Source: Escherichia coli (GTDB taxonomy: Bacteria > Pseudomonadota > Gammaproteobacteria > Enterobacterales > Enterobacteriaceae). From it: DNA of 64,000 bases. Shown piece after piece: positions 9,269-44,012 of the stretch. The stretch lies in assembly GCF_024223415.1 (NCBI RefSeq), contig NZ_CP100500.1; one strand, written 5' to 3'. A program made the position numbers and the translations under genes. Positions within the stretch are counted from its first letter, which is position 1. Each line of letters starts with the position of its first letter. The notes beneath the pieces were generated by a model, which was not told the origin of the DNA, made no database searches, and saw only the letters and a program-made list of their open reading frames with translations.

Positions 9269-9270
9269 AA

Positions 9271-18068: not shown

Positions 18069-18165
18069 GATTGTGCTCCTGTGTAAGTTCAGGGCAGTAT
18101 GTCGGGAGAAGCGCGTGACGGATATTAAAGGAGATTAAGAAGAAGGGGCCGGAGCCCCTGTGATG

Positions 18166-18447: not shown

Positions 18448-18449
18448 CG

Positions 18450-21549: not shown

Positions 21550-21550
21550 C

Positions 21551-21886: not shown

Positions 21887-21896
21887 AGACTTCTCC

Positions 21897-22850: not shown

Positions 22851-22859
22851 GCTTTCTCC

Positions 22860-23975: not shown

Positions 23976-24189
23976 TTTGCTGTCCCGCGTTATGTTGTCG
24001 GAGACAGTTTGTGAGAAATGCGGGCCCGGCGATTTTAATCTGCTTTAGAAAACATCAGGGGAGAAGGACAGGGAAAGCAATGTGGTGAACCGGAGGCAGT
24101 TATAAAACAGAGGCTGTAAAGCCTTTATAAAGGTAATACAGCCCCTCATTCGCTGGCAATGATAAATCACCCGCCTGAAGAGAGAAAAC

Positions 24190-24648: not shown

Positions 24649-24650
24649 TG

Positions 24651-25472
24651 TTATCCTCTCAGTTCCTGTTGTGCCAGTGTCTGAAGCGTACCCTGATAGC
24701 GGGCCAGGTCGGGACGGTATGCTGCCCCCGGTGCATAAGACCAGCCGACGTCGGTGGTCACCTTCGTGGTGCCGGTATTAAAGGTGGCCACGTTCCGCAT
24801 TTCGCCGGTTTTCTCTGAGACCAGTTTCAGTTCCTGGCCCATGGCAGAGCCGGAGCTGATAACCTTCAGGCCACGGGCACGTACATCCGCCGCACTCAGG
24901 GCAATTACACTACAGCGGCAGCGCCAGCCGTTCGGCGGGTAAAATGCCTGCCAGAACGGGTCATCCCAGCGCAGCACCAGACCATGCAGCGCCAGATGGC
25001 TCCTGCGGGTATGGCTGTCGTTGATGCCGGTATACATCCAGTACGGCCTGTCGTCGACGTTTTCCATCTGCTCCGCCCAACGACCGGCGCTGTAGAGTAC
25101 GGACATATTGGTGCGAAAGATGGTATCGAGCCGCCACGGACTGCCCTGCTGAATGGTGACCGGCTCACCCGTTACCGGGTCAGTCGTGTCACGCGGTCCC
25201 CACCATCCCCTGCGCTTCAGCGCCGGCTCCAGCTCCTGCCGGAACCAGCGATCGGTTTTTCCTTCATCAACAGCCTGCTGCAGTGTCCCGCGAATATCTT
25301 CCAGAATATCCAGGCGGGTCACTTTAGCGACGGTAAAGGCGCGGGCATGGGCTTCCTGCCACATTTCTTCCTGGTCCCAGGTAATCTGATACCCTTTGGA
25401 CTTCAGGTAGCTGACTGCCCGCTTCGGGGGAAGCGTCATGCAGTACGCCAGTTCAGCCGTTGTCACGCTCAT
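24651..25472 (-). CDS. minor head morphogenesis protein (Mu F-like)
   Basis: About 273 aa; start at ATG 25472 overlapping the portal gene end. Confidence 0.75.
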   Translation of the reverse strand: MSVTTAELAYCMTLPPKRAVSYLKSKGYQITWDQEEMWQEAHARAFTVAKVTRLDILEDIRGTLQQAVDEGKTDRWFRQELEPALKRRGWWGPRDTTDPVTGEPVTIQQGSPWRLDTIFRTNMSVLYSAGRWAEQMENVDDRPYWMYTGINDSHTRRSHLALHGLVLRWDDPFWQAFYPPNGWRCRCSVIALSAADVRARGLKVISSGSAMGQELKLVSEKTGEMRNVATFNTGTTKVTTDVGWSYAPGAAYRPDLARYQGTLQTLAQQELRG

Positions 25473-28265: not shown

Positions 28266-28816
28266 GAGATCACCCCGTAAATCTGTTCCCGCACCATCTT
28301 CAGGGTTTCCAGACTCAGGCGGGTGTCGCCGGACTTCGCCTGTTTTTCCAGAGCATTCATCCGTGCCTCAATTTTTGCCAGCACCTCGGCCCGGAATCGC
28401 TTGTGGGTCACCGAAGCACGGACAAGAGTGGCTATGCTTTCCGAAGCAGTGGCCAGCAGTTTTGCGCGTTTTGCAGGATCATCACTTTCTCCGATTTCCT
28501 GCAGACGCATCAGAACATCCAGCATCTCGGTCTGAATCAATGCCATCATCCCGGCAGAACGATCGTCCGCCTCGTCACCGGCTTCCTGCGCCATCAGACG
28601 CGCGGCCTCGGTGGCGGCGCGGATGCGGGCCAGTTGTCGCTCCATTTTGTACCCGAACCGCTGCAGGGAGGAACGGGTGATGACGTATCCCTTCTCCTTC
28701 AGCAGGGCTTCCAGCCGGGCGTAGCCGCTGAAGTTATTCTCCGTCAGGGCTCGCTCCAGCCAGCGGCTCACCTCTGTCGGGAGGGTATCAATGCTGCTGC
28801 GACGTCCCATAATCAC
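28262..28816 (-). CDS. Mu gp27-like protein (terminase small subunit candidate)
   Basis: 184 aa; overlaps the large terminase start. Confidence 0.65.
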   Translation of the reverse strand: MIMGRRSSIDTLPTEVSRWLERALTENNFSGYARLEALLKEKGYVITRSSLQRFGYKMERQLARIRAATEAARLMAQEAGDEADDRSAGMMALIQTEMLDVLMRLQEIGESDDPAKRAKLLATASESIATLVRASVTHKRFRAEVLAKIEARMNALEKQAKSGDTRLSLETLKMVREQIYGVIS

Positions 28817-29124
28817 TCACTCCAGTACTTTTCCGGGCGGGCAATACCCGGGCCGCATTCCACGGTGTATTCCACAATATCCACACCAAGGCGACTCAGA
28901 TCGGCAAACCAGTCACCGGAAGGTCTCTTCTCCAGCTCCACCATTTTGCGATCTGCCAGATAATCAAGCTCCCGGCGCAGCTCCAGTTGCGTGGTGTCCG
29001 GGTAGATGGCGCGGGACACTTCCAGCAGCAACGTCTCGCTGGCGGTGTAAGGGCGGGTTTTGTTAAGGGCAACCAGCAGACTCCAGCGCAGGGATTCACG
29101 GCGTACCCGGGTAATATCGACCAT
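28813..29124 (-). CDS. hypothetical phage protein
   Basis: 103-aa ORF in the operon, overlapping stop/start codons. Confidence 0.5.
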   Translation of the reverse strand: MVDITRVRRESLRWSLLVALNKTRPYTASETLLLEVSRAIYPDTTQLELRRELDYLADRKMVELEKRPSGDWFADLSRLGVDIVEYTVECGPGIARPEKYWSE

Positions 29125-29450
29125 TATTGACCTCCGGTATTGCGGTACTGCTGTACCACTTCCAGTTTGTTGTAAAGCGCGTCCAGTTTGGCCTCGATGA
29201 CTGTCTGGCCACGGATATAATCCTCGCGACGGACATAATTCAGCGGTAAATCCGCTTTAAATCGCATCAATTCTTTTTCCAGCTCGCCCCAACTGGAGGC
29301 GGACTGCTGCAGTGACTGCTCAAGAGAGGCAAAACGTGCAGCCTGACGTTCCTCCGCTTTACTGAACAGCCATTTGGCCATACCGCCAACAAAGCTCATG
29401 AAGGTGATGAGAAAGCCCACCACCGTCCAGAATTCAACCTGCAGTGTCAT
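29124..29450 (-). CDS. membrane protein with N-terminal TM helix (Mu gp25-like)
   Basis: 108 aa; hydrophobic N-terminus then charged coiled-coil. Confidence 0.55.
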   Translation of the reverse strand: MTLQVEFWTVVGFLITFMSFVGGMAKWLFSKAEERQAARFASLEQSLQQSASSWGELEKELMRFKADLPLNYVRREDYIRGQTVIEAKLDALYNKLEVVQQYRNTGGQ

Positions 29451-30100
29451 TTATGTAATCCTTCCCGTTCATCCAGCAACGCGTTTATCTGGTTCCGCCA
29501 GCGACGACATTGTCCTGCGTTGTCGATGATGTTGGCGAGAACGTCACGCTGGGAGACACCCGAATCGCGTAACCGGGTATCAGCGGTTTCAGGTTGCCCG
29601 GTCGCTGCGCCAGTGCCGGTGCCAGCGGTGGCAGTTGCGTCTGAATGACCGGTGTCGACGGATGCGTTGTCATATCCGAGTGCGGCGTTGTACTGGCGCA
29701 CGAAACCGCGAGTAAACACGCACTCAATGGGATGGCTCTTACCTTTTTCATCAATCCAGCGCTGTGTGACATCGTTAATTTGCCCCTGTAGTTGTTTGTT
29801 CCGGCTCTCCAGTTGAGCAATCTGCTCAAGGTAACTGGCTTCAGCCCGTTGCCCGGCGGCTACCTGCTCCTGATACCGTTTTGCCCATGCTCGCAATGCA
29901 GCGTTCTCAAGCATTGCCTGCTCCGTTTTGTATGTGTCGAATGCTGACTGCAACTCACTGATCGCCTTATCGCCGTTGCGCGTGGCGTTTTCATGCCCGC
30001 TTTTGTAGCCCAGGTAATAAAGTCCAATCAGAAAAGCATTTATGAGCACTGCCAGCAGCAGACTGCGCCACGGCAGATTTTTTAGCAGGTTAGTCCACAC
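29447..30100 (-). CDS. inner-membrane spanin candidate (Rz-like)
   Basis: N-terminal TM helix, long coiled-coil, sits after the endolysin; contains an embedded lipoprotein ORF. Confidence 0.6.
   Translation of the reverse strand: MWTNLLKNLPWRSLLLAVLINAFLIGLYYLGYKSGHENATRNGDKAISELQSAFDTYKTEQAMLENAALRAWAKRYQEQVAAGQRAEASYLEQIAQLESRNKQLQGQINDVTQRWIDEKGKSHPIECVFTRGFVRQYNAALGYDNASVDTGHSDATATAGTGTGAATGQPETADTRLRDSGVSQRDVLANIIDNAGQCRRWRNQINALLDEREGLHK
29485..29751 (-). CDS. outer-membrane spanin candidate (Rz1-like lipoprotein), embedded in the Rz-like gene
   Basis: MKKVRAIPLSACLLAVSC lipobox-type signal then proline-rich sequence, in the +1 frame inside 29447-30100. Confidence 0.5.
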   Translation of the reverse strand: MKKVRAIPLSACLLAVSCASTTPHSDMTTHPSTPVIQTQLPPLAPALAQRPGNLKPLIPGYAIRVSPSVTFSPTSSTTQDNVVAGGTR

Positions 30101-30824
30101 AGCTGCCGCCCCCCCATGTCAGATAACGGGGGGCCAGTTCGTGCAGGATGCGCTGCGGATAATGACGGTTCTCCCGCCAGCTGGCAGCATTGCGTCCGGC
30201 ATTCACCGTGGCGACATGTCCGAACCAGCGCTGACTGTCCAGCCCCAGATTTGCGGCGAGCCGCTGGTCACGACGCACCCAGCCCGGGCCACCGTTATAG
30301 CCCGACAGTGTCATGGCCATACGCTCGCAGTCACTGGCGGCGCTGATGCGCTGCCACAGCCAGCGGTCATAGCTGACCAGCGCCCGGATGGCCCATGCCG
30401 GATTAAACGGCTCACGACTGCTCAGCGCCGGCATCAACTGGCTTATCCAGTCAGCGGTGGCGGGCATAAACTGCGCCAGCCCCTGAGCGCCCACCGGCGA
30501 GACCGCATCAGGCCGCCAGCCGCTTTCCTGATGCAGTTGCGCGGCGAAATCGGCCACCGGCGCAGACAGCCCCCATTCAAGCCGGGCATTACGGATCACA
30601 TCATCGCGATACTGCAGCGCAGCCTGCGGAGGCTGCGCTGCGCGGGCCTGACTGAAGAAGCCGCCACACCAGAGCAACATTGCGACAAAGAATACCCATG
30701 CCATATGAACCAGAAAGGTCCCGACACGGACTGACAGGCGTTCGGTTCTGATGAAGACCAGAAAGGCTTCGAAAGCCAGTTTCAGGGACATGCATACAAT
30801 CCAGGTGCTCTGTGGCCAGTTCAT
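30090..30824 (-). CDS. endolysin, lytic transglycosylase type, with N-terminal membrane anchor/SAR-like segment
   Basis: SLT-like catalytic region (..EWGLSA..QLHQESGW..); hydrophobic N-terminus; true start may be ATG 30704. Confidence 0.75.
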   Translation of the reverse strand: MNWPQSTWIVCMSLKLAFEAFLVFIRTERLSVRVGTFLVHMAWVFFVAMLLWCGGFFSQARAAQPPQAALQYRDDVIRNARLEWGLSAPVADFAAQLHQESGWRPDAVSPVGAQGLAQFMPATADWISQLMPALSSREPFNPAWAIRALVSYDRWLWQRISAASDCERMAMTLSGYNGGPGWVRRDQRLAANLGLDSQRWFGHVATVNAGRNAASWRENRHYPQRILHELAPRYLTWGGGSCVD

Positions 30825-30826
30825 GA

Positions 30827-31177
30827 TTAAAGCCCCATCGCAACAGCCAGACAGACAGCTGCAACAATCAGTGCACGGCGGATTAACGCAGCAGAAAAAA
30901 CCAGGTGAAGGCCGGTCTGTACGGGCCAGCGCCCCTCAGCCATGAGGCGCTCGTCATGCTTCAGGTACTGCCCCGGACGGGCCTTCGGGAAGAGTGAGCG
31001 GTCCAGCCAGTAGCCGAGCACGGCGGCGAGGGAGATGAGAGAGAGCTTGTACACCACCACCGGCAACTGCTGGGGCGAGACCAGCGCGATGATGAGGAGT
31101 AGCAGCACGGCCGCAACAAGCCATCCACGCAGGCGGGTTTTTTGTACGTCAGCGATAAGGGAAGTGAATGGTTTCAT
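30827..31177 (-). CDS. holin-like membrane protein, first gene of the leftward late operon
   Basis: 116 aa with 2-3 predicted TM helices directly upstream of the endolysin. Confidence 0.55.
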   Translation of the reverse strand: MKPFTSLIADVQKTRLRGWLVAAVLLLLIIALVSPQQLPVVVYKLSLISLAAVLGYWLDRSLFPKARPGQYLKHDERLMAEGRWPVQTGLHLVFSAALIRRALIVAAVCLAVAMGL

Positions 31178-31308
31178 GAAAATGTCTCCTTGTTGTGTGG
31201 AGACAGCATGGCAAAAGCGTGGCGCGGAGGATTTTAAAGCGCGTTAAGAGAGAGGCGTGTTCGGGGTATGCAGAATACACGCTGGATCACTCACAAAGGA
31301 GATACAGA

Positions 31309-31857
31309 ATGACAGTCACACCGAAGCCGACCATCACCGTCAGAGTGTCCGGGCCTGTGGGCAGCGGTAAAAGTTACGTTCTGACGCGTATAAAAGAGAT
31401 GGTGAAAAAGGAATTTGGAAAAAGCGTCATTGTCGATGCCGCAGTTGTGGACGACGAGCGTATCTGTCGGACGAATGAGCTGCTTCAGGAGCAACTCATG
31501 AAGGTGTTACGCAAACTCACCGGTCAGACAACAAAATGTTTTTCAGCCCCGGAGTACGGGATACAGGAACACATCCCGGTGAACATGCCCCCCGTTAACC
31601 AGCCTCCCCGGTTCTTCGACGAATACATTCTGACACCGGAAAATAAAGCTGAGCATGAAGAGATCAAAGCGGCGTTGTTCCGGGAAATCAGGAAGATTGC
31701 TGAAATGCAGCTGGAGGGCGGGCTGGACAGAGTGATGGCGAGAGGAGAATGGGAATCGCTGTTTGAAAGAGTTTCCCCGGAATTGCTTCCCCTCGCACTG
31801 GCTATCGGGATTATGCAGACAGCGGATAAACCTCACTTACGTTCATTAAACACGTAA
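31309..31857 (+). CDS. small P-loop NTPase/kinase-like protein, unknown function
   Basis: Walker A GPVGSGKS at residues 14-21, hhhhDD-type VIVDAAVVDDE; AAGGAG RBS 7 nt before ATG; opposite strand to the flanking late genes. Confidence 0.6.
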   Translation: MTVTPKPTITVRVSGPVGSGKSYVLTRIKEMVKKEFGKSVIVDAAVVDDERICRTNELLQEQLMKVLRKLTGQTTKCFSAPEYGIQEHIPVNMPPVNQPPRFFDEYILTPENKAEHEEIKAALFREIRKIAEMQLEGGLDRVMARGEWESLFERVSPELLPLALAIGIMQTADKPHLRSLNT

Positions 31858-32237
31858 CGCATAATCCGGGATACGCATTCAGCGATGACTGCATTTTCAC
31901 CGGTTTTTACTGCATCCAGAAGTGACTCTTTAAATGGTACGGGCCGGGGCTGCAGAAAGGTCGGCATGGCATTGAGCAGACAGAGCGTTTTTTCCGTGAG
32001 GACGACATCAGCCGCTCCCACAGCCAGCAACTGAGAGTAACGAATATAGCTGTTATCCCGAAGCCATATCAGCGTATCAATAAAATACCGGCACTTTTTC
32101 TGATCGTGATCAACCTGGTCCGGGATATCGAAAAAACCAGAATAAATCAAAACCTGAGGAGCCGGATGCGTGTTCAGTAATCGGCAGAATATTTTGCCGG
32201 TGAGTACATAAAAATCATCATTTAAGGAGTGCATCAT
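31833..32237 (-). CDS. hypothetical protein (134 aa)
   Basis: ORF convergent with the P-loop gene (25-nt 3' overlap) and divergent from the next gene; weak RBS; coding status uncertain. Confidence 0.4.
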   Translation of the reverse strand: MMHSLNDDFYVLTGKIFCRLLNTHPAPQVLIYSGFFDIPDQVDHDQKKCRYFIDTLIWLRDNSYIRYSQLLAVGAADVVLTEKTLCLLNAMPTFLQPRPVPFKESLLDAVKTGENAVIAECVSRIMRYVFNERK

Positions 32238-32451
32238 GAATCCCCGATTAACGTTAACAGAACATCAGCGCCGTGCCGAAGCAGTGAACAATGTTCTGGA
32301 AGATATTATCCGGTTACATCGCGGAGAACTGAGTGTCTGTCGTGCCACTGTTCATTTTCAGGAAATACAAAAGCAGTTTGATACTTCTGTTTTTGCAGAA
32401 GGGATCACTTATGCCCTGGACCAGATAAGGTCAGAAAATCGCCCCGGATAA
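32236..32451 (+). CDS. small hypothetical protein (71 aa)
   Basis: AAGGAG RBS 6 nt upstream of ATG; start overlaps the start of the divergent ORF by 2 nt. Confidence 0.5.
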   Translation: MNPRLTLTEHQRRAEAVNNVLEDIIRLHRGELSVCRATVHFQEIQKQFDTSVFAEGITYALDQIRSENRPG

Positions 32452-32643
32452 TCCCTAAACCACATTAACAGAAATCACTTCATCCCTGCCGCATCATGAA
32501 AGAACGACCAGCCCGGTGCTTCGGACCCACCAGGCTGGCCATCGTCCCACAGGAATGCGCTGTGAGCCGACCGGGGTTCAGTCAGTCTCGCGAGACCAGA
32601 CTAGCCTGCCATATTTTTAATAATTGTAAAAGGCTTACAGATT

Positions 32644-33408
32644 ATGAAAATGCAGACATTACCCATCGTTCCATGGATTGGTGGCAAACGTCGCCTGGCA
32701 AAACACATCCTGCCGCTGTTTCCGGCGCATGAATGTTACGTGGAGCCGTTCTGCGGCGCAGCAGCGCTCTATTTTCTTAAGACACCTGGTAAGCTCGAAG
32801 TCATTAACGATATCAATGGTGAACTGGTAAATCTGTATCGGGTGGTAAAACATCATCTGGAAGAATTTGTCCGCCAGTTCAAATGGGCGCTGGTCAGCCG
32901 GCAGATCTACAAATGGCTGCAGATCACCCCGACAGAAACACTGACGGATATCCAGCGTGCAGCACGGTTCTACTACCTCCAGAAGCAGGCGTTTGGCGGC
33001 AAGGTGGCAGAGCACAGCTTCGGCACCTCCACCACATCCCCGCCACGCTTCAACCTGCTGCGTATCGAGGAAGAACTGTCAGCGGCACACCTGCGGCTTT
33101 CCAGAACGGTGATAGAACACATGGACTGGCAACAGTGCATTGAGCGCTATGACCGTCCGCACACGCTGTTCTACTGTGACCCGCCGTATCTGGGTACAGA
33201 AGGCTATGGTGTGGATTTTCCTGAAGGGAACTACTCGCGGCTGGCAGAGCTGGCCCGGTGCATCAGAGGAAAGATGATAATTTCGGTGAACGACATCCCG
33301 CAGATGCGCGAGGTGTTCACTGGACTGAACATACAGACAGTGAACATCAACTACAGTCTGGCAGGCAAATCAACTCCACGCCGTGAGCTGGTGATCTGCA
33401 ATTTCTAA
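32644..33408 (+). CDS. DNA N6-adenine methyltransferase (Dam-like)
   Basis: Motifs FCGAAALYF and DPPY; 254 aa; no partner nuclease gene adjacent. Confidence 0.85.
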   Translation: MKMQTLPIVPWIGGKRRLAKHILPLFPAHECYVEPFCGAAALYFLKTPGKLEVINDINGELVNLYRVVKHHLEEFVRQFKWALVSRQIYKWLQITPTETLTDIQRAARFYYLQKQAFGGKVAEHSFGTSTTSPPRFNLLRIEEELSAAHLRLSRTVIEHMDWQQCIERYDRPHTLFYCDPPYLGTEGYGVDFPEGNYSRLAELARCIRGKMIISVNDIPQMREVFTGLNIQTVNINYSLAGKSTPRRELVICNF

Positions 33409-33526
33409 AAGCCATAACCGGAAAGTACAGTGCTTTCCGGTAAGCCCGCCGATTTCTGCCATGCTACTGACGGCGTTTTCTGAAAGCATCCAGATCAACC
33501 ACCTGTCCTTTCTGTCCAGGTCAGAA

Positions 33527-33865
33527 TCAGCCTGCGAGTTTGCCTGGTTTGGGTTGAATGAAGACTTTGCCGACCTCAAGAATTGCCCTCCGTTGTTCGG
33601 GGCTCATCTCGTCGAATGCATCCATTAACTCTTTCTTTTCTTGTGACATATAAGGTGCAACAACAGGCTGACTCCGCACCCCAGTAACTACATACAAAAC
33701 ATCTACACCGATTTCTGATAGTGCAGATAACTGCACTGCAGTAGGAGAAGTGCGATCTTTTTCCCAATCAATAAAAGTTCTCTTTGCCACACCGATAGCA
33801 TCAGCCAACCCTTGCTGTGTAAGAGATAGACGCTCTCTTTCTTCTTTAATACGTAACCCGATCAT
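33527..33865 (-). CDS. XRE-family HTH regulator, prophage repressor candidate (c-like)
   Basis: Cro/CI-type HTH (LTQQGLADAIGVAKRTFIDWEKDR); divergent from the early operon; start set at ATG 33865 so it does not overlap the Ner-like gene. Confidence 0.65.
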   Translation of the reverse strand: MIGLRIKEERERLSLTQQGLADAIGVAKRTFIDWEKDRTSPTAVQLSALSEIGVDVLYVVTGVRSQPVVAPYMSQEKKELMDAFDEMSPEQRRAILEVGKVFIQPKPGKLAG

Positions 33866-33965
33866 GTGAGTTTTTCTGCACTCTTTAAGTTGACTGGTGA
33901 GATAATCTGCACCATAATCTATCACACATAAGGCAAACATCATTGCATCAACAAAGGAGACAACG
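33866..33965. promoter_or_regulatory. divergent early control region between repressor and Ner-like gene
   Basis: 100-bp AT-rich spacer with repeated CTGCAC motifs; geometry matches the Mu c/ner switch. Confidence 0.4.
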
Positions 33966-34154
33966 ATGACTGCAGAACAAGTCAAAGCTCTCTTCCGCCA
34001 GCGCGGGATCACTTTCACCCGCTGGGCAGAAGAAAACGGCTACAACCGCAATGAGGTATACCGCGTTCTCAATGGGCAGAGCAAAGCACGTTACGGTAAA
34101 TCCCATGAAATCGCCGTGAAACTGGGGCTGAAATCAACAGCTCAGGCAGCCTGA
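33966..34154 (+). CDS. Ner-like small DNA-binding protein
   Basis: 62 aa; residue pattern parallels Mu Ner; AAAGGAG RBS. Confidence 0.55.
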   Translation: MTAEQVKALFRQRGITFTRWAEENGYNRNEVYRVLNGQSKARYGKSHEIAVKLGLKSTAQAA

Positions 34155-34206
34155 ATATTTTGATTCTTTGTAAAAGGTTATCACATATCGCAAAAGAGGT
34201 ATGCAG

Positions 34207-34515
34207 ATGAGTAAGACGAATGTTTCAAGCTCCGGCAGTCGCATCCTCCGGGTACTCAAAGCGCTGCGCGGTCATGCCCTGAACGGTATTTCCAATGGTG
34301 AACTGGCGGCAGCACTGCACGAGTCACCGGCAAACATCAACCGGGCACTCAACACCCTCATTGAAGAAGGACTGGCCCTGAAACTGGAAAACGGGCGTTT
34401 CGCACCGGGCATCCAGTTGCTGCAGATCGCCATGGCCCACAGTAACGAGATGGCACGTGCACAGGATCGCATTAACGAAATCAACCAACGTGTCATTTCA
34501 GGTAGTCGTTTGTAA
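34207..34515 (+). CDS. winged-helix DNA-binding protein, hypothetical
   Basis: About 102 aa; HTH-like ISNGELAAALHESPANINRALNTL. Confidence 0.5.
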   Translation: MSKTNVSSSGSRILRVLKALRGHALNGISNGELAAALHESPANINRALNTLIEEGLALKLENGRFAPGIQLLQIAMAHSNEMARAQDRINEINQRVISGSRL

Positions 34516-34525
34516 GGAGTAATCA

Positions 34526-35443
34526 ATGGGACGCACCAAATCACCGGTTAACACTGAACTGAACGCCGAGGTACCGCTGTCGGATGATCTCAACGTCAGC
34601 CTGAATGCCATGACACAGCATCGCATGGAGATCATGCAGCAGTTTGGTGATGGACTGCCTTATGAACGTGATCGCATCGTTCACGAAGCACGTTTTTATA
34701 TGGCGCAGAGTGCTGAATCTATGCTGGAAGCGGGTAAACGGCTGATCATCTTAAAAGAAAATGAGCCACACGGGGACTTTGTTGGAATTGTAGAAGAACA
34801 ACTTGGTTTGCACGTGCGCGCAGCACAACGAATGATGAAAGCATCTTTGAAATACCTTTCACCAAAACTAGAGCCAAAAGCGACAACGTTGTCGCTTTTG
34901 GGTAAGGCAAAATTATTTGAACTTGTTGCTGAAGACGATGAAGACCTTGCCGAACTGGCCGACGGCGGCACAGTTGCCGGCCTGACGCTTGATGATGTTG
35001 ATCGCATGTCAGTACGTGAACTTCGCCAGGCCCTGCGTGAAGCGCGCGAAACTAACGCAGCTCAGCAACAGGTGCTTGCCGGAAAGGACGAAAAAATCAA
35101 CGAACTGGCCACAAAACTGGAGAAGAAATCCCGTATTCAACCGCCTGAGCCTGATGAAGAGGTGAAGAAGCTGCGGGCGGAAGTGACCGCATTAGCGGTT
35201 GAGGCGGAATCTGCCATCGCCGTCCGGCTCTCCGGTGCCTTTGAAACCCTGTGTGAATACTGCAGTAAAAACATGATTGATACCCCCAGAGATTTCATGG
35301 CCGGTCTGGTCTGCCAGATTGAACGCAGTGTTCATGCATTGCGTGAGACGTTCGACCTTGATGCCGCACCATCGGGTAACGATGCCCCCGCCTGGCTGAC
35401 CGAACCGGAGCCTGAAATCAACCGACCGGAGGGCATGCAGTAA
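34526..35443 (+). CDS. hypothetical early protein (305 aa)
   Basis: ORF in the early operon; acidic coiled-coil regions. Confidence 0.55.
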   Translation: MGRTKSPVNTELNAEVPLSDDLNVSLNAMTQHRMEIMQQFGDGLPYERDRIVHEARFYMAQSAESMLEAGKRLIILKENEPHGDFVGIVEEQLGLHVRAAQRMMKASLKYLSPKLEPKATTLSLLGKAKLFELVAEDDEDLAELADGGTVAGLTLDDVDRMSVRELRQALREARETNAAQQQVLAGKDEKINELATKLEKKSRIQPPEPDEEVKKLRAEVTALAVEAESAIAVRLSGAFETLCEYCSKNMIDTPRDFMAGLVCQIERSVHALRETFDLDAAPSGNDAPAWLTEPEPEINRPEGMQ

Positions 35444-35760
35444 TGAACACGGATAACACACAAAATATCCTGATGGACAGCCCGGAAGCACTGGGGCACG
35501 CACTGTGTAATCTGCTGCCGGAGATGGTGCAGGGTTTCCGCGTGGTGACACCTTCCGGTGAAATCTGCGTACCCGCACAGGAGGCGCATCCGTTTGTACT
35601 GACGATGGAAGTGATGCTGATGCAGCAGATAAGACGTCTGCAGCATCAGTCAGCATTGCGCCCGGCAGTTGCGCCGCAACCGGTAAATAACGTGGTGAAA
35701 ACCTGCGATGGCGAAACACTGTACGACCTCGCCAGAAAAATTGCCGCCAGAATCGGATAA
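35443..35760 (+). CDS. hypothetical early protein (105 aa)
   Basis: ATGA stop-start overlap with the upstream gene. Confidence 0.5.
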   Translation: MNTDNTQNILMDSPEALGHALCNLLPEMVQGFRVVTPSGEICVPAQEAHPFVLTMEVMLMQQIRRLQHQSALRPAVAPQPVNNVVKTCDGETLYDLARKIAARIG

Positions 35761-35775
35761 CAGGGAAGACAAGCT

Positions 35776-37545
35776 ATGACCCCGGCACTGACTGAAAAAC
35801 TTGTTGAAACAGCCCGCGCGGCACGTAATGCAGGGCATGGTAAACGCGGTGCAATATACGACGCTGCCTGTGCTGAACTTGGCATGTCCCGCGCCACTCT
35901 GCTGCGCAGGCTGAAGGAGGTCTCTGTGACTGATAAACGCAAAAAACGCGCCGATGCCGGACGCAGCACCCTGACCCGCGACGAAGCCGCGCTGATATCT
36001 GCCACACTACGTGAGGCCACCCGCAAGAACGGTAAGCGTCTCTATTCCATCGCGGATGCAGTGGAAACCCTGCGGGCTAACGGCTTTATCTCCGCAGGCA
36101 GAACAGATGAAACCACCGGTGAGTTTTTCCCGTTGTCCGAAGATGCCATCAGTCGTGCCCTGCGTAACTATGGCCTGCACCCGGAACAACTGGATGCCCC
36201 TGCACCGCATACCGAAGTGGCCAGTCTGCACCCCAATCATGTCTGGCAGATTGACGCCTCACTCTGCACGCTTTACTACCTGAGCAATGGACATAAAGGG
36301 CTGCAGGTGATGGACAGCGCGAAATTCTACAAGAACAAGCCCGCTAACCTTGCCCGTATCGCCAGTGACCGCGTGTGGAGTTACGAGATTACCGACCATG
36401 CCAGCGGCTGGATTTACGTTGAGTATGTGACGGGTGCGGAATCCGGTGAGAACCTGTGTTCTGTGCTTATCAACGCCATGCAGGAGCGTGGCGGCGCAGA
36501 CGTGCTGCACGGCGTGCCAAAAATACTCTATCTCGACCCCGGCTCGGCAAACACCGCGGGTATGACGAAAAACATGTGCCGCTCACTGGGCATCGACCTG
36601 ATAGCGCACAAGCCGCATAACGCCCGCGCCACCGGACAGGTGGAAAAGGCGCGTGACATTATCGAACGCAAGCTGGAGCCGGGTCTGAAGTTCCGGCCGG
36701 TTCACAGTCTGGAAGAACTCAACGCGCTGGCCGCGAAATGGCGCAGCCACTTTAACGCCACGGCTGTTCACAGCCGCCACGGTAAAACCCGCACGGATAT
36801 CTGGCTGAAGATTACTGCTGAGCAGCTGAAAAAAGCGCCTTCCGTTGAGGTATGTCGTGAACTGGCTGTGGCGGCACCAGAACTCCGCAAAGTCACGCCA
36901 AAACTTCGTGTCTCGTTCCGGGGCACTGAATTTGACGTATCAACGGTACCGGGCGTACTGGTCGGTGAAAAACTGATGATTACCCGTAACCCGTGGCGCA
37001 GCGATGTGGCACAGGTGGTTCTGACCGGTGAGGACGGCCACGAGACGTTCTTCCTGGTCGAAGAGGTCAGAAAGAACGAGTTTGGCTTTGCTGAAGGCGC
37101 GGCGGTATTTGGCGAAAGTTACAAAGCCCTGCCGGAAACCCCGGCGCAGATGGCGGCAAAAGAAACCGAAGCGCTGGTCACCGGTACAGACAACGCCGCA
37201 GATGCAGCTGCCGCACGCAAGGCGAAGGCGCTGCCGTTCGGCGGGCGGCTTGACCCGTATAAACATATTGATGACGCCACACTTCCGGCCTGTATACCGA
37301 AGCGTGGTCAGGCCTCTGACGTACGCGGACCGCGCACTGAACAGCGTCCCATGACTCATGTGGAGGCCGCGAAAGCCCTGCGCGGGAAGTTTAGCGCAAA
37401 CGGCCTGACCTGGACGCCGGAACATTACCGCCAGTTAACGGCACAGTACCCGGACGGCGTACCGGAAGCCGCACTGGATGAAGTCATGGCCACGCTGACC
37501 ACGCCGGCCCGCAGCAGCGTTATCAGCATTGTTAACGGCAACTGA
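35776..37545 (+). CDS. DDE transposase (Mu A-like)
   Basis: 589 aa; N-terminal HTH, integrase-core-like region (HVWQIDASL...), followed by the B-like ATPase. Confidence 0.85.
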   Translation: MTPALTEKLVETARAARNAGHGKRGAIYDAACAELGMSRATLLRRLKEVSVTDKRKKRADAGRSTLTRDEAALISATLREATRKNGKRLYSIADAVETLRANGFISAGRTDETTGEFFPLSEDAISRALRNYGLHPEQLDAPAPHTEVASLHPNHVWQIDASLCTLYYLSNGHKGLQVMDSAKFYKNKPANLARIASDRVWSYEITDHASGWIYVEYVTGAESGENLCSVLINAMQERGGADVLHGVPKILYLDPGSANTAGMTKNMCRSLGIDLIAHKPHNARATGQVEKARDIIERKLEPGLKFRPVHSLEELNALAAKWRSHFNATAVHSRHGKTRTDIWLKITAEQLKKAPSVEVCRELAVAAPELRKVTPKLRVSFRGTEFDVSTVPGVLVGEKLMITRNPWRSDVAQVVLTGEDGHETFFLVEEVRKNEFGFAEGAAVFGESYKALPETPAQMAAKETEALVTGTDNAADAAAARKAKALPFGGRLDPYKHIDDATLPACIPKRGQASDVRGPRTEQRPMTHVEAAKALRGKFSANGLTWTPEHYRQLTAQYPDGVPEAALDEVMATLTTPARSSVISIVNGN

Positions 37546-37555
37546 GGAGGGAAAC

Positions 37556-38722
37556 ATGCTGGTACTGAAGCAGCAACTGAAAGAGGCCCGTATTCCACAG
37601 GCGGTGGCGGCGAGAGCTGTCGATGTTTCTGAGGCCACGCTGGCCCAGATTGTGAATCATAACGCGTGGCCCCGCACCAGCCCCGGAGAAGTGCGCCGGC
37701 GTCTTGCGTCCTGGCTGGAAAGTCAGGGGATTGATACAACGAAGAGTTTTGATGCTGTACAGGGCGCGGCCACGCCCCGTACAGCGAGTACCACAGATAA
37801 AACGAGCCTCAGTGAGGAAGAGAATATGTTACTCAAAAAACAGGTGTTATTTCCAGCAACCAAAAAAGCGTTTGGTCTTTTCCGTGACCCGTTCGCCGAC
37901 GAAGCCATGCAGGGTTCTGATGATGTGTTCACCACCCCGGACATTCGCTACGTGCGTGAGGCGCTGTACCAGACAGCCCGTCATGGTGGGTTTATGGCCG
38001 TCATCGGTGAGTCCGGTGCGGGTAAATCCACGCTGCGCCGCGACCTGACTGAACGTATTAACCGCGAGAATGCGCCGGTAATTGTTATCGAGCCATACAT
38101 CATTGCCATGGAAGACAACGATGTGAAAGGGAAAACCCTGAAGGCTGCAGCGATTGCCGAAGCCATTATCAGTACCATCGCACCACTGGAAAGCATCAGA
38201 CGCAGTCAGGACGCCCGCTTTCGCCAGTTGCATCGCGTCCTGAAAGGCAGCAGCCAGGCGGGGTTCAGCCACGTTCTGGTGATTGAGGAGGCCCACAGTC
38301 TGCCCATTCCGACACTGAAACACCTCAAACGCTTTTTTGAGCTGGAGTCCGGTTTCAAAAAACTGCTGTCCATCGTGCTGATTGGCCAGCCGGAACTGGC
38401 GACAAAACTGTCTGAACGCAATATGGAAGTCCGTGAAGTCGTTCAGCGCTGTGAGGTGGTCGAACTTCTGCCTCTGGACAATAACCTTGAAGAATTTCTG
38501 ACGTTCAAACTGCAACGGGCCGGTAAACAACTGACGGACATTATGGACGCCAGCGCAGTGGATGCCATACGTGCCCGCCTGAGCAATCCGGGAAGTCATC
38601 GTAAAAATATGGTCAGCCTGCTGTATCCGCTGGCCGTCAGTAACCTGGTAATAGCCGCCATGAATCTGGCCGCTGAAATCGGGGTTCCACAGGTCAACGC
38701 TGACGTTGTCAAAGGAGTTTAA
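37556..38722 (+). CDS. transposition ATPase (Mu B-like, AAA+)
   Basis: Walker A GESGAGKST, Walker B HVLVIEEAH; GAGGAGG RBS before ATG 37556. Confidence 0.85.
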   Translation: MLVLKQQLKEARIPQAVAARAVDVSEATLAQIVNHNAWPRTSPGEVRRRLASWLESQGIDTTKSFDAVQGAATPRTASTTDKTSLSEEENMLLKKQVLFPATKKAFGLFRDPFADEAMQGSDDVFTTPDIRYVREALYQTARHGGFMAVIGESGAGKSTLRRDLTERINRENAPVIVIEPYIIAMEDNDVKGKTLKAAAIAEAIISTIAPLESIRRSQDARFRQLHRVLKGSSQAGFSHVLVIEEAHSLPIPTLKHLKRFFELESGFKKLLSIVLIGQPELATKLSERNMEVREVVQRCEVVELLPLDNNLEEFLTFKLQRAGKQLTDIMDASAVDAIRARLSNPGSHRKNMVSLLYPLAVSNLVIAAMNLAAEIGVPQVNADVVKGV

Positions 38723-38724
38723 TA

Positions 38725-38994
38725 ATGAAATCCACCACAGGTATCAACCAGCAAATCAGCAAAGTGCAGTCAGCCATTATGGCGCTTAAGGCGACGAACA
38801 CGGATGTACAAAGCATCACCATCAGGGGTAACAAACCTGTCATCCGCGTTTCCCGGAGTGCGCATTGCATGCGCATGCTTGAGCAGGGAAAGGCCTGTTA
38901 TCTGTATACCGGACATGACCACAGGGGATATTTCCGTCAGGGCGTTTTCGAACTGCACGGCTGTCGCGTCGTGTGGCCGGAATCTTTGTGGTAA
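38725..38994 (+). CDS. hypothetical early protein (kil-position)
   Basis: 89-aa ORF between B and gam. Confidence 0.5.
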   Translation: MKSTTGINQQISKVQSAIMALKATNTDVQSITIRGNKPVIRVSRSAHCMRMLEQGKACYLYTGHDHRGYFRQGVFELHGCRVVWPESLW

Positions 38995-39021
38995 TCAGCA
39001 CAACCGGAGAAATCATAAAAT

Positions 39022-39552
39022 ATGGCAAAAAGTACAAAAGGGGCAAAACGTATCAAGGCCGCAGCGGCACTCTGGGTACCAGGGACACGCGAAGAGGTCA
39101 TTGAGGGAATCAGACTACTCGGTGACGCACAACGTGAACTGGTCAGGGCTGAAACAGAAATGAATGACGCCATTGGCGATATCACCGCACGTTATGCCCC
39201 GCTCACCGAGAGCCTGAAAAAACGCATGGCCGAACTGCAGTCCGGTATTCAGACATGGTGTGAGGCACACCGTGATGAACTGACCGGCAACGGGAAGGTG
39301 AAGTTCGCTAACCTCACCACCGGCGAGGTGCAGTGGCGAAACCGTCCGCCATCAGTCAGTATCCGTGGGGCGGATAATGTTATTGAATTACTGAGACGTC
39401 TGGGGCTTGAGCGCTTTATTCGTGTAAAAGAGGAAATAAATAAAGACGCTATCCTGAATGAAAAAGAGGCCGTGAAAAATATTCCCGGTATTTCCATTAA
39501 AAGCGACATTGAGGATTTTTCAATAATTCCTTTTGAGCAGGATGTGCAGTAA
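39022..39552 (+). CDS. gam: host-nuclease inhibitor Gam
   Basis: Closely parallels Mu Gam along its length (..SIRG.D.V.E.L.RLGL.RFIR.K.EINK.AIL.. and C-terminal IEDFSIIPFEQ). Confidence 0.85.
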   Translation: MAKSTKGAKRIKAAAALWVPGTREEVIEGIRLLGDAQRELVRAETEMNDAIGDITARYAPLTESLKKRMAELQSGIQTWCEAHRDELTGNGKVKFANLTTGEVQWRNRPPSVSIRGADNVIELLRRLGLERFIRVKEEINKDAILNEKEAVKNIPGISIKSDIEDFSIIPFEQDVQ

Positions 39553-39649
39553 ACACACCACGTTAATTATTTAATAAAAACATTTTCTTTTTTATTCCGG
39601 CGTCAGCGCCGCGGGCTTCTGCACGCCGGAAACAGAGGAGAATTAAATC

Positions 39650-39844
39650 ATGATATTTAAATGTATTCAGTGCGAGAGGGATATAACAGCCCTGCGTTTT
39701 CACAGCGCCATCGCCGTGATGTCCGGTAAATACCACATCCCTGCGGTACGCGTCACCCTGGTCTGTCCGTACTGCAGCCAGCATTTTTCGGCAGACGTGC
39801 CCGTCATGGAATTCTCCCGCCCTGACAGGGAGGACGCGCAATGA
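39650..39844 (+). CDS. Com-like zinc-finger protein candidate
   Basis: CxxC...CxxC (CIQC..CPYC) in 64 aa; stop overlaps the start of the next ORF (ATGA). Confidence 0.5.
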   Translation: MIFKCIQCERDITALRFHSAIAVMSGKYHIPAVRVTLVCPYCSQHFSADVPVMEFSRPDREDAQ

Positions 39845-40113
39845 TTACCCCACAGGAAGCACGACAGCGCACCCGAACCCTTGTTGAACACTATGTCAAC
39901 GAGTGTGAATGTCGCGACCTCACCGATGTGAAGCACGTCCTGACGGCGCTAATCAGCATGGCCACACAGGCCATTGTGGCAACCAACGGAAAGGCGGCTG
40001 CCCTGCAGGTACTGATGAACACACTCACCCACACGGCAGAGCATGAGGTGCCGTACCGGATGGAAACCACTGCAGAAGGCGGCCTGCACATCACCGTCAG
40101 CCGGAAGCACTGA
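39841..40113 (+). CDS. hypothetical protein (90 aa)
   Basis: Translationally coupled to the Com-like ORF. Confidence 0.5.
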   Translation: MITPQEARQRTRTLVEHYVNECECRDLTDVKHVLTALISMATQAIVATNGKAAALQVLMNTLTHTAEHEVPYRMETTAEGGLHITVSRKH

Positions 40114-40122
40114 GGGTGCGGC

Positions 40123-40419
40123 ATGACACGAAACACCGAACTCACCCGCACCGCCCTCTACCGTCTGGCCCTGCAGCGTTTCGGGCCGGATGCACAGGCC
40201 CTGAAACTGACAGAAGAGGCCGCTGAACTGGCGGCCAGTGCTGCCCGCAACCTGAACGGACAGGGCAGCGAAAGTGACCTCGCGGCAGAGCTGGCAGACG
40301 TGGAAATCATGACAGAGCAACTGCGCCTTCAGGGGATGGACCGGCTGATTGACTTCCACAAACAGAAAAAACTGGAACGTCTGGCTGCACGACTGGGCGT
40401 GATTTACACGAACGAGTAA
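40123..40419 (+). CDS. MazG-like nucleotide pyrophosphohydrolase candidate
   Basis: EExxE ... ExxD acidic motif pattern (EEAAELAAS ... AAELADVE) in a 98-aa all-alpha protein. Confidence 0.5.
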   Translation: MTRNTELTRTALYRLALQRFGPDAQALKLTEEAAELAASAARNLNGQGSESDLAAELADVEIMTEQLRLQGMDRLIDFHKQKKLERLAARLGVIYTNE

Positions 40420-40645
40420 CCGGGAGGCATTCAATGGCTGACATACTCAGGGAAATCACCGCATGGACACTGATTCTTACTGGTCTGGCGACATGCCTCA
40501 GTGCGGGAGCAGCCCTGGCTGCCCTGCTGATGCACATAACAACACAGTGGTTATGAGAAAAGCTTAAAGCAGCATACAGCCTGAAAGAGCTGTCCGACGC
40601 TGTCCGGGCATGGAAACGGCAGAAAAATACCGGAGATACAGAACA

Positions 40646-41329
40646 ATGACAGACCAGAATAAACACATTGAGAAACTGAAAAAGTTGCTGGCGCTGGCCG
40701 CATCCGGCAACCCGCATGAGGCTGCTCTGGCACTGCGCCGCGCCCGTAAACTGATGGATGTTCACGGCATCACACATTCCGACATCGCCATGAGTGATAT
40801 TGATGAAACCATCAGTCACTACTGGCCGACAGGCAGCCTCCGTCCGCCGCGCTACATGCCAGGGCTGATGAACATCATCCGCGAGGCATTTGGTGTTAAC
40901 TCCATCATTCACCCCGGCACATATCCGGGTGTGGGGTTCTACGGCAAACGGGAACGGGCCGCACTGGCCGCGTACACCTGGGAAGTGCTGGCCCGTCAGC
41001 TGAAAAAGGCGCGTCAGCAGTATATCAGTGCACAGAACAAAAGAATAAAAACCGCCACCCGCACCAGCCGTGGAGACCAGTTTGCTGAAGGCTGGGTGCT
41101 GGCCGTTATCAGTGAAATACAGTCCTTCGCCCTGACCAATGACGAACGTGAACTGATGCAGCAGTGGCTGGAACATAAATACCCGCAGACGCAAACCACC
41201 AGGGCGCGTAAACCGGGAAGAAGTCGCAATGGCGACGCCTCGCGCTATGCGGGGTTTCGAGAAGGGCAGAACGTCAGACTGCACCGACCGGTCAGTGGGC
41301 GGGAACAGCAGAAACTGGAGGCCAGATGA
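40646..41329 (+). CDS. hypothetical early protein with conserved N-terminal helical domain
   Basis: Start at ATG 40646; N-terminal IEKLKKLLALAASGNPHEAALALRRARKLM. Confidence 0.55.
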   Translation: MTDQNKHIEKLKKLLALAASGNPHEAALALRRARKLMDVHGITHSDIAMSDIDETISHYWPTGSLRPPRYMPGLMNIIREAFGVNSIIHPGTYPGVGFYGKRERAALAAYTWEVLARQLKKARQQYISAQNKRIKTATRTSRGDQFAEGWVLAVISEIQSFALTNDERELMQQWLEHKYPQTQTTRARKPGRSRNGDASRYAGFREGQNVRLHRPVSGREQQKLEAR

Positions 41330-41556
41330 TGACGTTATCAGGTAACAGCCGGAAATTAAAAGCCTGCCGAATATCTGCCAGATACCTTTTTGCCCGCGCC
41401 TTTTTTAAGAACGTCAGGCCGGGGATCACAATTGGTGTTATTGCCGGACGCGAACAGGTTGAAAAATACATGTCAGGTGCATGGTGGAATAAAGACCCTG
41501 TCATTGCTGCCCGTAATATTCATATCAGTTGGGGAGATATTCAGAATGACTGCTGA
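41326..41556 (+). CDS. hypothetical small protein
   Basis: 76-aa ORF; weak support. Confidence 0.35.
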   Translation: MMTLSGNSRKLKACRISARYLFARAFFKNVRPGITIGVIAGREQVEKYMSGAWWNKDPVIAARNIHISWGDIQNDC

Positions 41557-41761
41557 ATCTGTTGTATGTGCCCTGTTCTGGTATTGTTTTGTCGGTTGGT
41601 GTACTGCTGAACTGCACCGCCGTTCAGGGTTTTATTCACGTTACAGTGGTGCCGGTTACTGGATTAGCTGGTCGGTGATGTTCCTGTGCTGGCCTGTGGC
41701 ATTTCCTTTATATGTCGATTATATCGGTGATGCAGGCAGAAGGAGCAACGATGATGACTAA
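41546..41761 (+). CDS. small membrane protein
   Basis: GGGGAG RBS; two hydrophobic helices in 71 aa. Confidence 0.45.
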   Translation: MTAESVVCALFWYCFVGWCTAELHRRSGFYSRYSGAGYWISWSVMFLCWPVAFPLYVDYIGDAGRRSNDDD

Positions 41762-42203
41762 ACAACGTCTTATCCAGCTTATCCATATTGCCCGTAATGA
41801 ACTGGGTATGGATGAAGACACCTACCGCCAGATGTTACAGGGGCTGACCGGTAAAGCCTCAACCAAAGGAATGGATACCACACAACTAAACTGCGTGCTG
41901 GAATCCATGAAAAGGAAAGGCTTTCGCGTTAAGCCTGCCGGAAAAGCCAGCTCCGGTTTACCGCTGGATAACCATCCGCAGTCCAGGAAAATCCGTGCGC
42001 TATGGCTTGAAATGGCTGCTGCCGGCATTGTTCGTGACCGTTCAGAAAATGCATTAGCGCGGTGGATCAAGCGGGAAACGGGCATCAGCGCCCTGCGCTG
42101 GCTCAATACTGAACAGGCAAGCAGTGTTATTGAGAAACTGAAGAAGTGGCAGCACAGAGCTGCGGGAGTAAAACATGAGCGACCTGAATCAGTTTCGAAG
42201 TAA
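41751..42203 (+). CDS. gemA: GemA-like regulatory protein (Mu gp16 family)
   Basis: AGGAG RBS before ATG 41751; GemA-family N-terminal sequence; directly upstream of mor. Confidence 0.7.
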   Translation: MMTKQRLIQLIHIARNELGMDEDTYRQMLQGLTGKASTKGMDTTQLNCVLESMKRKGFRVKPAGKASSGLPLDNHPQSRKIRALWLEMAAAGIVRDRSENALARWIKRETGISALRWLNTEQASSVIEKLKKWQHRAAGVKHERPESVSK

Positions 42204-42573
42204 AGGGCCGGAACTCCTGGTGGAGCTGGCACAGCATACCTCTGAGACCGTTCGCGAGATTATTGATATTGAGCCCGCAATTGCCGACCAGATTGGTCAG
42301 GCCGTCGCGAACCGAATGATGCAGGTCTGGGGCGGGCAAAACGTTTATTTCCCGATGGGCATGGTATGGAAGGTCAGTCAGCGCGACCGGGAAATCTTCA
42401 GGGAGTTTAACGGACGCAACCACCACGAACTGGCCCGCAAGTTTGGTGTTTCGCTTCAGTGGGTCTACAGCGTGGTTAAGCGGGTCAGAAAAGAAGAACT
42501 GGATCGGATGCAGGGCAGGTTGTTTGATGAAGATCTGCCAGAGGAGACGAAAGACGTTAACAAATCCAGATAA
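42175..42573 (+). CDS. mor: Mor-family transcriptional activator
   Basis: 132 aa; C-terminal ..FNGRNHHELARKFGVSLQWVYSVVKR.. parallels Mu Mor (..FNGRNVSELTTRYGVTFNTVYKAIRR..). Confidence 0.75.
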   Translation: MSDLNQFRSKGPELLVELAQHTSETVREIIDIEPAIADQIGQAVANRMMQVWGGQNVYFPMGMVWKVSQRDREIFREFNGRNHHELARKFGVSLQWVYSVVKRVRKEELDRMQGRLFDEDLPEETKDVNKSR

Positions 42574-42618
42574 TTCCTGCTTGTTAAAGTCCTTTCAAAA
42601 ATCTCCTTATTGTATAAA

Positions 42619-42650
42619 AGCACGGTAGACCCCGTACCGTGCTTTTTTTA
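42619..42650 (+). terminator. rho-independent terminator
   Basis: AGCACGGTA-loop-TACCGTGCT stem followed by 7 T. Confidence 0.6.
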
Positions 42651-42687
42651 TGCTCTCTCTTTAGTATTCAGGATGCAGGGAGAAAAT

Positions 42688-43320
42688 ATGTTTGACGTTT
42701 CGTTGTTAAATCTGCCATGGGCAACACTGGTGACCCTGACCAGTGGCTATATTGGGTATTTTATTGCGAATGTGGGACTGAAGGATCACCACAAGCCCAT
42801 TGAGGTGACTTTTTCTTCGCTGATTTTTGGCCTGACAGCAATGATGGCTTACCAGGCTGTTATGTGGGCAGGTCTGAATGCCTGGCTGGCAACACCACCA
42901 GCACTTCTGTGTGCCGTTACATGCGGTGCGTGGTGGCGCAGGTACGGTCGCAAATGGATGTACAGATTACTGTGGAATAATGATATTTCATGGTCTGACG
43001 ATACCAGCTCAGCATGGCAGGCAATGTTTGATCAAACAGGCTTCAGCGTTACCGAGGTCAGAGTGATTCTTCGCGATGGTTCCGGTATGATGTCACGGCT
43101 GCCAGGGAACTTTGAACAGTGGCCTAACGGTCCGTTTACCCTGGGGAATAAAGGCGATATGGTTCTTTACGTCACGCACAGCAGCCCTTCAGGCAGTAAC
43201 GAATGGGAAGAGTATAAAGGCGTGGTTGATAAGTACTGGGGAGCTCTGGCAACCTATATTCCAGCAGATCAGATTGCCAGAGTGGAGATCAGGCGCGTTC
43301 GTGCAACGAACGATGAATGA
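42688..43320 (+). CDS. membrane protein of unknown function (moron candidate)
   Basis: 210 aa; 2-3 N-terminal TM helices plus soluble C-terminal domain; downstream of the mor terminator, about 360 bp from the prophage end. Confidence 0.6.
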   Translation: MFDVSLLNLPWATLVTLTSGYIGYFIANVGLKDHHKPIEVTFSSLIFGLTAMMAYQAVMWAGLNAWLATPPALLCAVTCGAWWRRYGRKWMYRLLWNNDISWSDDTSSAWQAMFDQTGFSVTEVRVILRDGSGMMSRLPGNFEQWPNGPFTLGNKGDMVLYVTHSSPSGSNEWEEYKGVVDKYWGALATYIPADQIARVEIRRVRATNDE

Positions 43321-43599
43321 TGTTTATTTTTTCCCTGGGGCAGGGGCTGCCGGCATAGTGGTTTTATTGGCAGAGGAAGACGATTCTCCTTTTCTACCGG
43401 AATCGCGCTCGAACGTCACGATGTGCTTGCTTTTGGGATTTTCTGAGTAATCCAGGCTATCATGCTTATTGTTTTGAGTAGTCATTGGAATCATCCTTTT
43501 TGTTGCGGGTCATGTTTCAGCAAACTCGATTCTAAGTTGCCAGGAAGGATGATTTCAATGCCCGACTTATCTATCGTATAGCGGAAAAGAATTTCAGTT

Positions 43600-43681
43600 C
43601 TGTTCACCAGAACCCATGTTAACCCACTCCAATTCGTTATTTATCTCACGGATCCCCCTTCATTTATCTCATGTCTGATCA
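43600..43681. repeat. prophage end distal to gin, with transposase-binding-type motifs
   Basis: Reverse complement reads TGATCAGACATGAGATAAATG...GTGAGATAAATA, mirroring the other end (TGAT, 9 nt, GATAAATG, 15 nt, GATAAAT). Confidence 0.55.
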
Positions 43682-43687
43682 GGTGCG
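43682..43687. repeat. target-site duplication, right copy (GGTGCG)
   Basis: Matches 6057-6062. Confidence 0.6.
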
Positions 43688-44012
43688 TAAGCTCTCTGGC
43701 GGCAACCAGCAGAAAGTTATCCTCGCGCGCTGCATGGCGCTCAATCCACGGGTGTTGATTGTCGATGAGCCGACGCGTGGCATCGACGTTGGAACCAAAT
43801 CGGAAGTGCACCAGGTGTTGTTTGATATGGCGAAAAAGGGCGTGGCGGTGATCGTGATCTCCTCCGATCTGCTTGAAGTGATGGCGGTGTCTGACCGGAT
43901 CATCACCCTTAGTGAAGGCCGGTTAACTGGCGAGATCCACGGTGACGACGCTAACGAAGAACGGCTGATGACGATGATGGCTATCAACCACAACGCCCTG
44001 AACGCGGCATAA
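43682..44012 (+). pseudogene. sugar ABC transporter ATP-binding protein, 3' part
   Basis: Begins in frame with the second ABC signature (LSGGNQQKV) and Walker B (LIVDEPT); continues the ORF broken at 6062. Confidence 0.85.

Follow-up and report, generated by a model that had tools for sequence, protein, structure and literature searches.

A gene in the early operon of a BcepMu-like prophage of Escherichia coli that probably encodes a single-domain all-alpha NTP pyrophosphohydrolase

What is made from a 98-codon gene in the early region of a transposable prophage of Escherichia coli, and what could the product do for the phage? The question was raised by a stretch of 64,000 nucleotides of contig NZ_CP100500.1 (hereafter the window), in which an earlier note had proposed a small MazG-like pyrophosphohydrolase with an anti-defence or host-takeover function. 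The analysis presented here indicates that the gene quite likely encodes a single-domain all-alpha NTP pyrophosphohydrolase (NTP-PPase) of the MazG/HisE superfamily, which is predicted to be catalytically competent.

As read from the sequence, the open reading frame starts at the first ATG after an upstream stop codon and ends with TAA. When it was compared with its homologue from Klebsiella phage KP12 (73% identical), a dN/dS ratio of 0.16 was obtained and the differences were distributed 17/20/50 over codon positions 1, 2 and 3. This ratio and the third-position bias identify the ORF as a genuine gene on which purifying selection acts. Two ORFs antisense to it (39949..40434 and 40307..41284) were taken as by-products of the GC-rich coding strand. 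The Shine-Dalgarno-like GAGGG before the ATG shares nucleotides with the stop codon at 40111-40113, where the previous ORF ends, showing that the gene is tightly packed in a polycistronic array.

The prophage that carries the gene, ~37.6 kb long, is transposable and BcepMu-like (genus Bcepmuvirus). In this region the sequence shares 97% identity with Escherichia phage PhiKM and 98-99% with prophages of many E. coli chromosomes. When the locus was compared with an E. coli copy that has no insertion, the host sequence was seen to end at ~6062/6063 and to resume at 43681/43682. The prophage (about 6063..43681; junctions at 6057-6063 and 43680-43687) begins with 5'-TG, ends with CA-3' and has a 6-bp direct repeat, GGTGCG, on either side. 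Its insertion splits a gene of the myo-inositol (iol) cluster that encodes the ATP-binding component of a sugar ABC transporter; ORF 4840..6180 contains the N-terminal part and 43671..44012 the C-terminal one. The proposed assignment of the gene to an early operon agrees with the gene order (Table 1): transposase, MuB-like ATPase, Gam, GemA and Mor are all encoded on the + strand, and the one strong + strand terminator-like site follows mor, three weaker + strand matches being present between the transposase gene and mor. The gene had also been described as lying beside Gam. This is correct in so far as it is located three genes after gam, but two small ORFs and 570 bp intervene.

Table 1. Position of the NTP-PPase gene, its sequence elements and its neighbours in the window.
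Feature	Position	Strand	Basis
Promoter-like site	33890-33918		
DDE transposase	35776..37545	+	
MuB/ExeA-like ATPase	37529..38722	+	
89-aa ORF	between MuB/ExeA-like ATPase and Gam	+	
Gam	39022..39552	+	Pfam Phage_Mu_Gam, 1e-40
64-aa CxxC...CxxC (zinc-ribbon-like) ORF	39650..39844	+	PHROG 3401
90-aa ORF	39841..40113	+	PHROG 3691
GAGGG, Shine-Dalgarno-like, 6 nt before the ATG of the 98-aa gene	40112..40116	+	sequence
Gene for predicted single-domain all-alpha NTP-PPase (MazG/HisE superfamily), 98 aa	40123..40419	+	
Codons E31-E32-A-A-E35, putative first metal-binding motif, on predicted helix 9-44	40213..40227	+	sequence
Codons E56-L-A-D59, putative second metal-binding motif, on predicted helix 50-91	40288..40299	+	sequence
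Codons K83..R86, conserved basic residues of the last helix	40369..40380	+	homologue conservation
40-aa hydrophobic ORF, directly 3' of the NTP-PPase gene	40434-40556	+	PHROG 3958
DUF2786/DUF7168 protein (followed by small ORFs, then GemA)	40610..41329	+	
GemA	41712..42203	+	
Mor	42175..42573	+	
Terminator-like hairpin, 12 pairs then T run, at the end of the early operon, 3' of mor	42616-42646	+	consensus match only

The MazG-like reading had been based on the EExxE...ExxD spacing of acidic residues, and this spacing is indeed present, 20 residues separating the two halves given in Table 1; LKLT precedes E31 and VEIM follows D59. With E32-x2-E35-x20-E56-x2-D59, and E31 in addition, the protein fits the superfamily pattern E-x2-E-x(12-28)-E-x2-D. 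By itself the motif is weak evidence, because the pattern arose in 0.35% of composition-preserving shuffles of the protein and because it was detected in two of the 441 stretches of the window that are free of stop codons over 60 aa or more, the 98-aa ORF and Gam. In Gam, an unrelated protein, the EExxE-x(12-28)-ExxD string is clearly fortuitous, which demonstrates that the motif alone cannot identify MazG-type proteins.

It is conservation that gives the motif weight. An exhaustive HMMER scan returned 1,596 cluster representatives of the family at E<=1e-3, and residues were counted in 140 of the representatives listed, aligned to the family HMM. The homologues of ~90-110 aa share only ~35-50% overall identity with the query. 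E31 was kept in 140/140 representatives, E32 and E35 each in 135/140, E56 in 133/137 and D59 in 134/137. The other highly conserved positions were G21 (139/140), Q25 (138/140), A58 (136/137), Q66 (132/135), K83 (128/135) and R86 (121/135). Thus the five motif acids are retained in 96-100% of the 140 representatives, and the range is 90-100% when K83 and R86 are added. Since the acids are conserved across diverged homologues, the motif of the 98-aa protein is meaningful beyond chance. By their likeness to K76 and R83 of MazZ from phage S-2L (PMC8342488), K83 and R86 are candidate triphosphate ligands. This pattern also bears on the idea that the protein is a non-catalytic helical hairpin, for instance a small regulator or binding partner of an early protein, and that its resemblance to MazG is superficial. 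The near-invariance of the five acids and of K83/R86 at 35-50% identity, when most other positions vary freely, argues against it, and so do the profile and structure comparisons described below; we regard such a hairpin as very improbable.

The strongest profile match was to PHROG 2245, 'nucleoside triphosphate pyrophosphohydrolase' (E=4.8e-34, 119 bits, residues 1-97), a score that also stands against a superficial resemblance. Three other NTP-PPase/MazG PHROGs matched weakly. No curated Pfam or NCBIfam model reached its threshold with the protein: PRA-PH (PF01503) scored 15.1 bits against a cut-off of 21.3 and the HisE model TIGR03188 14.5 bits against 42.7, and Pfam MazG (PF03819) was not reported. 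When 69 diverged homologues were submitted to the same type of search, 13/69 matched Pfam MazG, 2/69 PRA-PH and 1/69 MazG-like (PF12643), at E<0.01 only. A sequence search of the PDB with the 98-aa protein alone gave no significant match; IWS1 and EsrB, which came up in the single-protein Pfam, NCBIfam and PDB sequence searches, were discarded as irrelevant. With the family profile, a marginal match to a MazG protein was obtained among PDB sequences (5ie9, E=0.027). A STAS protein and designed coiled coils outranked the MazG entries in that search and were read as low-complexity helical noise. E. coli MazG did not recover the family by tblastn. In an hhalign comparison of the family with E. 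coli MazG, which was not significant (E ~0.1), EEAAE lined up with EEIDE and ELAD with EMGD, both in the C-terminal domain of MazG. Taken together, the profile searches place the protein in no unrelated helical family, and the informative ones lead to the MazG/HisE superfamily.

The earlier note had suggested structure prediction as a check, and the AlphaFold2 model, computed from a 69-sequence alignment (pLDDT 96.4, pTM 0.81), has the fold of the superfamily: a long helical hairpin of two helices (residues 9-44 and 50-91) that superposes on solved members. The top Foldseek matches in the PDB were DCTPP1, iMazG, HISN2, Bacillus MazG, AF1178, S-2L MazZ and E. coli MazG, with E-values of only 0.1-3. 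These matches are consistently members of the superfamily and no random mix, which again argues against a non-catalytic hairpin. Searching BFVD returned models of phage 'nucleoside triphosphate pyrophosphohydrolase' proteins (E 4.5e-5 to 4e-4, TM 0.73-0.81, ~30% identity). The MazG-like reading is thus borne out by PHROG 2245, by Foldseek against the PDB and BFVD, by the sub-threshold matches to the PRA-PH and MazG Pfam families, and by names already in use: an identical protein is called 'NTP pyrophosphatase (non-canonical NTP hydrolase)' in IMG, and recent PGAP/RefSeq records have 'nucleoside triphosphate pyrophosphohydrolase family protein' where older ones have 'hypothetical'.

Members of the superfamily are known that serve one pathway, and the protein could in principle be such an enzyme: HisE, the phosphoribosyl-ATP pyrophosphatase of histidine synthesis; a MazZ that turns dGTP into dGMP for phages with 2-aminoadenine genomes; or a dUTPase of the all-alpha type. 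HisE was rejected on the score of TIGR03188 and the lack of pathway context, no histidine-pathway neighbours being annotated and the gene lying in a phage early operon instead. The gene for MazZ lies between datZ and purZ; neither is annotated in the closely related prophage of strain NR301, which is 99.2% identical over 39000-43600 of the window, and MazZ was rejected as well. In the window itself the neighbours are small PHROG-unknown ORFs and the DUF2786/DUF7168 protein, which are unrelated to datZ and purZ. As for dUTPases, the dimeric dUTPase family gave no Pfam match with the 98-aa protein. A pathway-dedicated enzyme is accordingly the least credible of the readings considered, with only a slight chance of being correct.

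How does the protein compare with characterized NTP-PPases? It is a direct member of the family to which the phage proteins of PHROG 2245 and BFVD named 'nucleoside triphosphate pyrophosphohydrolase' belong, these names being annotation-level. Relative to the archaeal and bacterial single-domain MazG-like enzymes of known structure (Sulfolobus SSO MazG, 1vmg; Vibrio integron iMazG, 2q5z; Bacillus YpjD, 2gta; BA MazG, 5ie9), its similarity is below the significance of curated models. Moreover, its model has two uninterrupted long helices whereas these enzymes have four or five shorter ones, and its gene is carried by a transposable prophage whereas theirs occupy cellular or integron loci. E. 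coli MazG (263 aa, PDB 3cra/3crc) has two tandem MazG domains, the window protein one; there is no significant sequence match between them, and the gene in the window is without the mazEF/relA context. The mammalian dCTP pyrophosphatase DCTPP1 (RS21-C6), which matches with E of only 0.1 and TM ~0.5, has extra helices and aromatic base-stacking residues. Cyanophage MazG, S-2L MazZ and Atd1 of Pectobacterium phage PcCB7V are, like the window protein, small phage-borne NTP-PPases with the same motif logic, but none is detectably related to it in sequence. The substrates reported for these three differ: S-PM2-type cyanophage MazG prefers dGTP and dCTP (PMC6850273), S-2L MazZ is (d)GTP-specific and converts (d)GTP to (d)GMP (PMC8342488), and Atd1 degrades ppGpp with a Km of ~50 uM (bioRxiv 10.1101/2022.06.09.495361). 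The substrate of the window protein is not readable from its sequence.

A mechanism may nevertheless be proposed from these relatives. Each 98-aa chain would form a long helical hairpin, and two chains would pack together as a helical bundle. Such dimers would probably pair in turn to a tetramer, the form taken by other single-domain members. S-2L MazZ is a tetramer in which the pocket lies at a tight dimer interface and the ion ligands are on one chain (PMC8342488). A two-copy AlphaFold2 model of the window protein, in which the copies were joined by a 30-residue Gly-Ser linker, gave pLDDT values of at least 93 for the copies and a pTM of 0.79, the linker alone being disordered; the result, a prediction on an artificial fusion, is compatible with a homodimer. 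E31, E32 and E35 of the first long helix, together with E56 and D59 of the second, would coordinate Mg2+ or Mn2+, with two or three divalent cations held by the acids of a single chain, and K83 and R86, probably from the partner chain, would hold the phosphates. The enzyme would then cut the alpha-beta phosphoanhydride bond of a nucleoside triphosphate, yielding NMP and PPi. As the gene would be transcribed with the early operon of the BcepMu-like prophage, the protein would act at the onset of lytic, transposition-driven replication; its most likely role, by analogy with cyanophage MazG and the house-cleaning MazG enzymes, would be to reshape or clean the (d)NTP pool from which the phage makes its DNA.

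The anti-defence or host-takeover function put forward in the earlier note is speculation by analogy. It would make the protein an Atd1-like enzyme that hydrolyses (p)ppGpp or another defence nucleotide early, and so averts alarmone-triggered toxins or abortive infection. Host-takeover genes of Mu-like phages are found in the accessory part of the early operon (the semi-essential early region of Mu), and the gene does occupy this part, amid small genes of unknown function. A precedent exists in Atd1 itself, a ppGpp-degrading MazG-like phage protein that protects cells against the toxicity of TIR-STING and retron-TIR (bioRxiv 10.1101/2022.06.09.495361). The published Atd1 is probably QQG33500.1 of PcCB7V (MW367417; L009 2104-2364, - strand), whose neighbourhood matches the paper's account of how the screen library was chosen. 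This protein has 86 aa with a GTG start in the record, is annotated 'phosphoribosyl-ATP pyrophosphatase', lies two genes from an annotated nucleotidyltransferase and carries EEVEE...EMSD. Its similarity to the window protein was not significant (BLASTP E=0.24, hhalign E=0.11), EEAAE of the 98-aa family being placed opposite EEVEE in the non-significant hhalign alignment, and it falls in PHROG 6408 (listed as 'unknown function') as against PHROG 2245. Cyanophage MazG, long assumed to degrade ppGpp, neither binds nor hydrolyses (p)ppGpp (PMC6850273). PADLOC gave no match, and none of the linked genes was recognised as acting in defence or anti-defence. For these reasons an Atd1-like enzyme appears unlikely. 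The same low probability is given to the broader idea that the enterobacterial subfamily of BcepMu-like early regions, the gene for which is often coupled in translation to that of a small CxxC...CxxC protein, is a dedicated counter-defence enzyme distinct from general pool cleaning, the targets of which might be (p)ppGpp or a non-canonical or chain-terminating NTP made by a defence system. In the literature on MazG in Mu-like prophages, or on MazG counter-defence beyond Atd1, nothing specific to the window subfamily was found. Reshaping or cleaning of the (d)NTP pool by an NTP-PPase is the preferred reading.

The 98-aa protein is an ordinary member of a known and already annotated phage family. 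Of 5,426 complete E. coli genomes, 620 carry its gene, which is chromosomal in every case and present in as many as three copies; tblastn against phage genomes gave only four relatives, all in Mu-like elements of Enterobacteriaceae. The importance of the assignment is little beyond correct annotation: a consistent name is useful because the gene is common in E. coli and many RefSeq records still read 'hypothetical'. Its substrate could reveal what nucleotide has to be eliminated when a transposable phage begins to replicate, and only a defence-related substrate, if true, would make the protein notable.

Several homologues are larger than the window protein. Some of P0012, P0032 (169 aa), P0048, P0056, P0095 and P0052 have C-terminal extensions of ~70 aa or unrelated N-terminal extensions, one of the latter being Cys-rich, and P0082 (1,288 aa) contains eight matched stretches, so that the domain is evidently reused in larger proteins. 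An apparent 166-aa 'fusion', P0036, was set aside as it looks like a frameshifted read-through with no real domain fusion. The record containing the KP12 homologue, OM835952.1 (L011; Klebsiella phage KP12 clone KP12_2, 35-kb), is classified in Vequintavirinae and has a Mu-like transposase, a MuB-like gene and a homologue of the Mor region. It resembles a Mu-like element that was co-assembled or co-packaged more than part of a Vequintavirinae genome.

In this KP12 element (L011 3295-3483) the CxxC...CxxC gene and the beginning of the NTP-PPase gene have 4 nt in common, and the window differs in that the extra 90-aa ORF separates the two; the CxxC...CxxC protein and the NTP-PPase may form a functional pair. 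On the other side of the NTP-PPase gene, the 40-aa ORF matches the first 40 of the 71 positions of the PHROG 3958 profile, and a longer gene of 216 nt is annotated at this place in PhiKM, suggesting that the ORF may be truncated in the window. Finally, a 210-aa ORF (42688-43320, + strand; PHROG 12870) was found at the extreme right end of the prophage, after the terminator-like hairpin that follows mor. It had no Pfam match, its N-terminus looks hydrophobic by eye, and it is a candidate for a 'moron' expressed during lysogeny.
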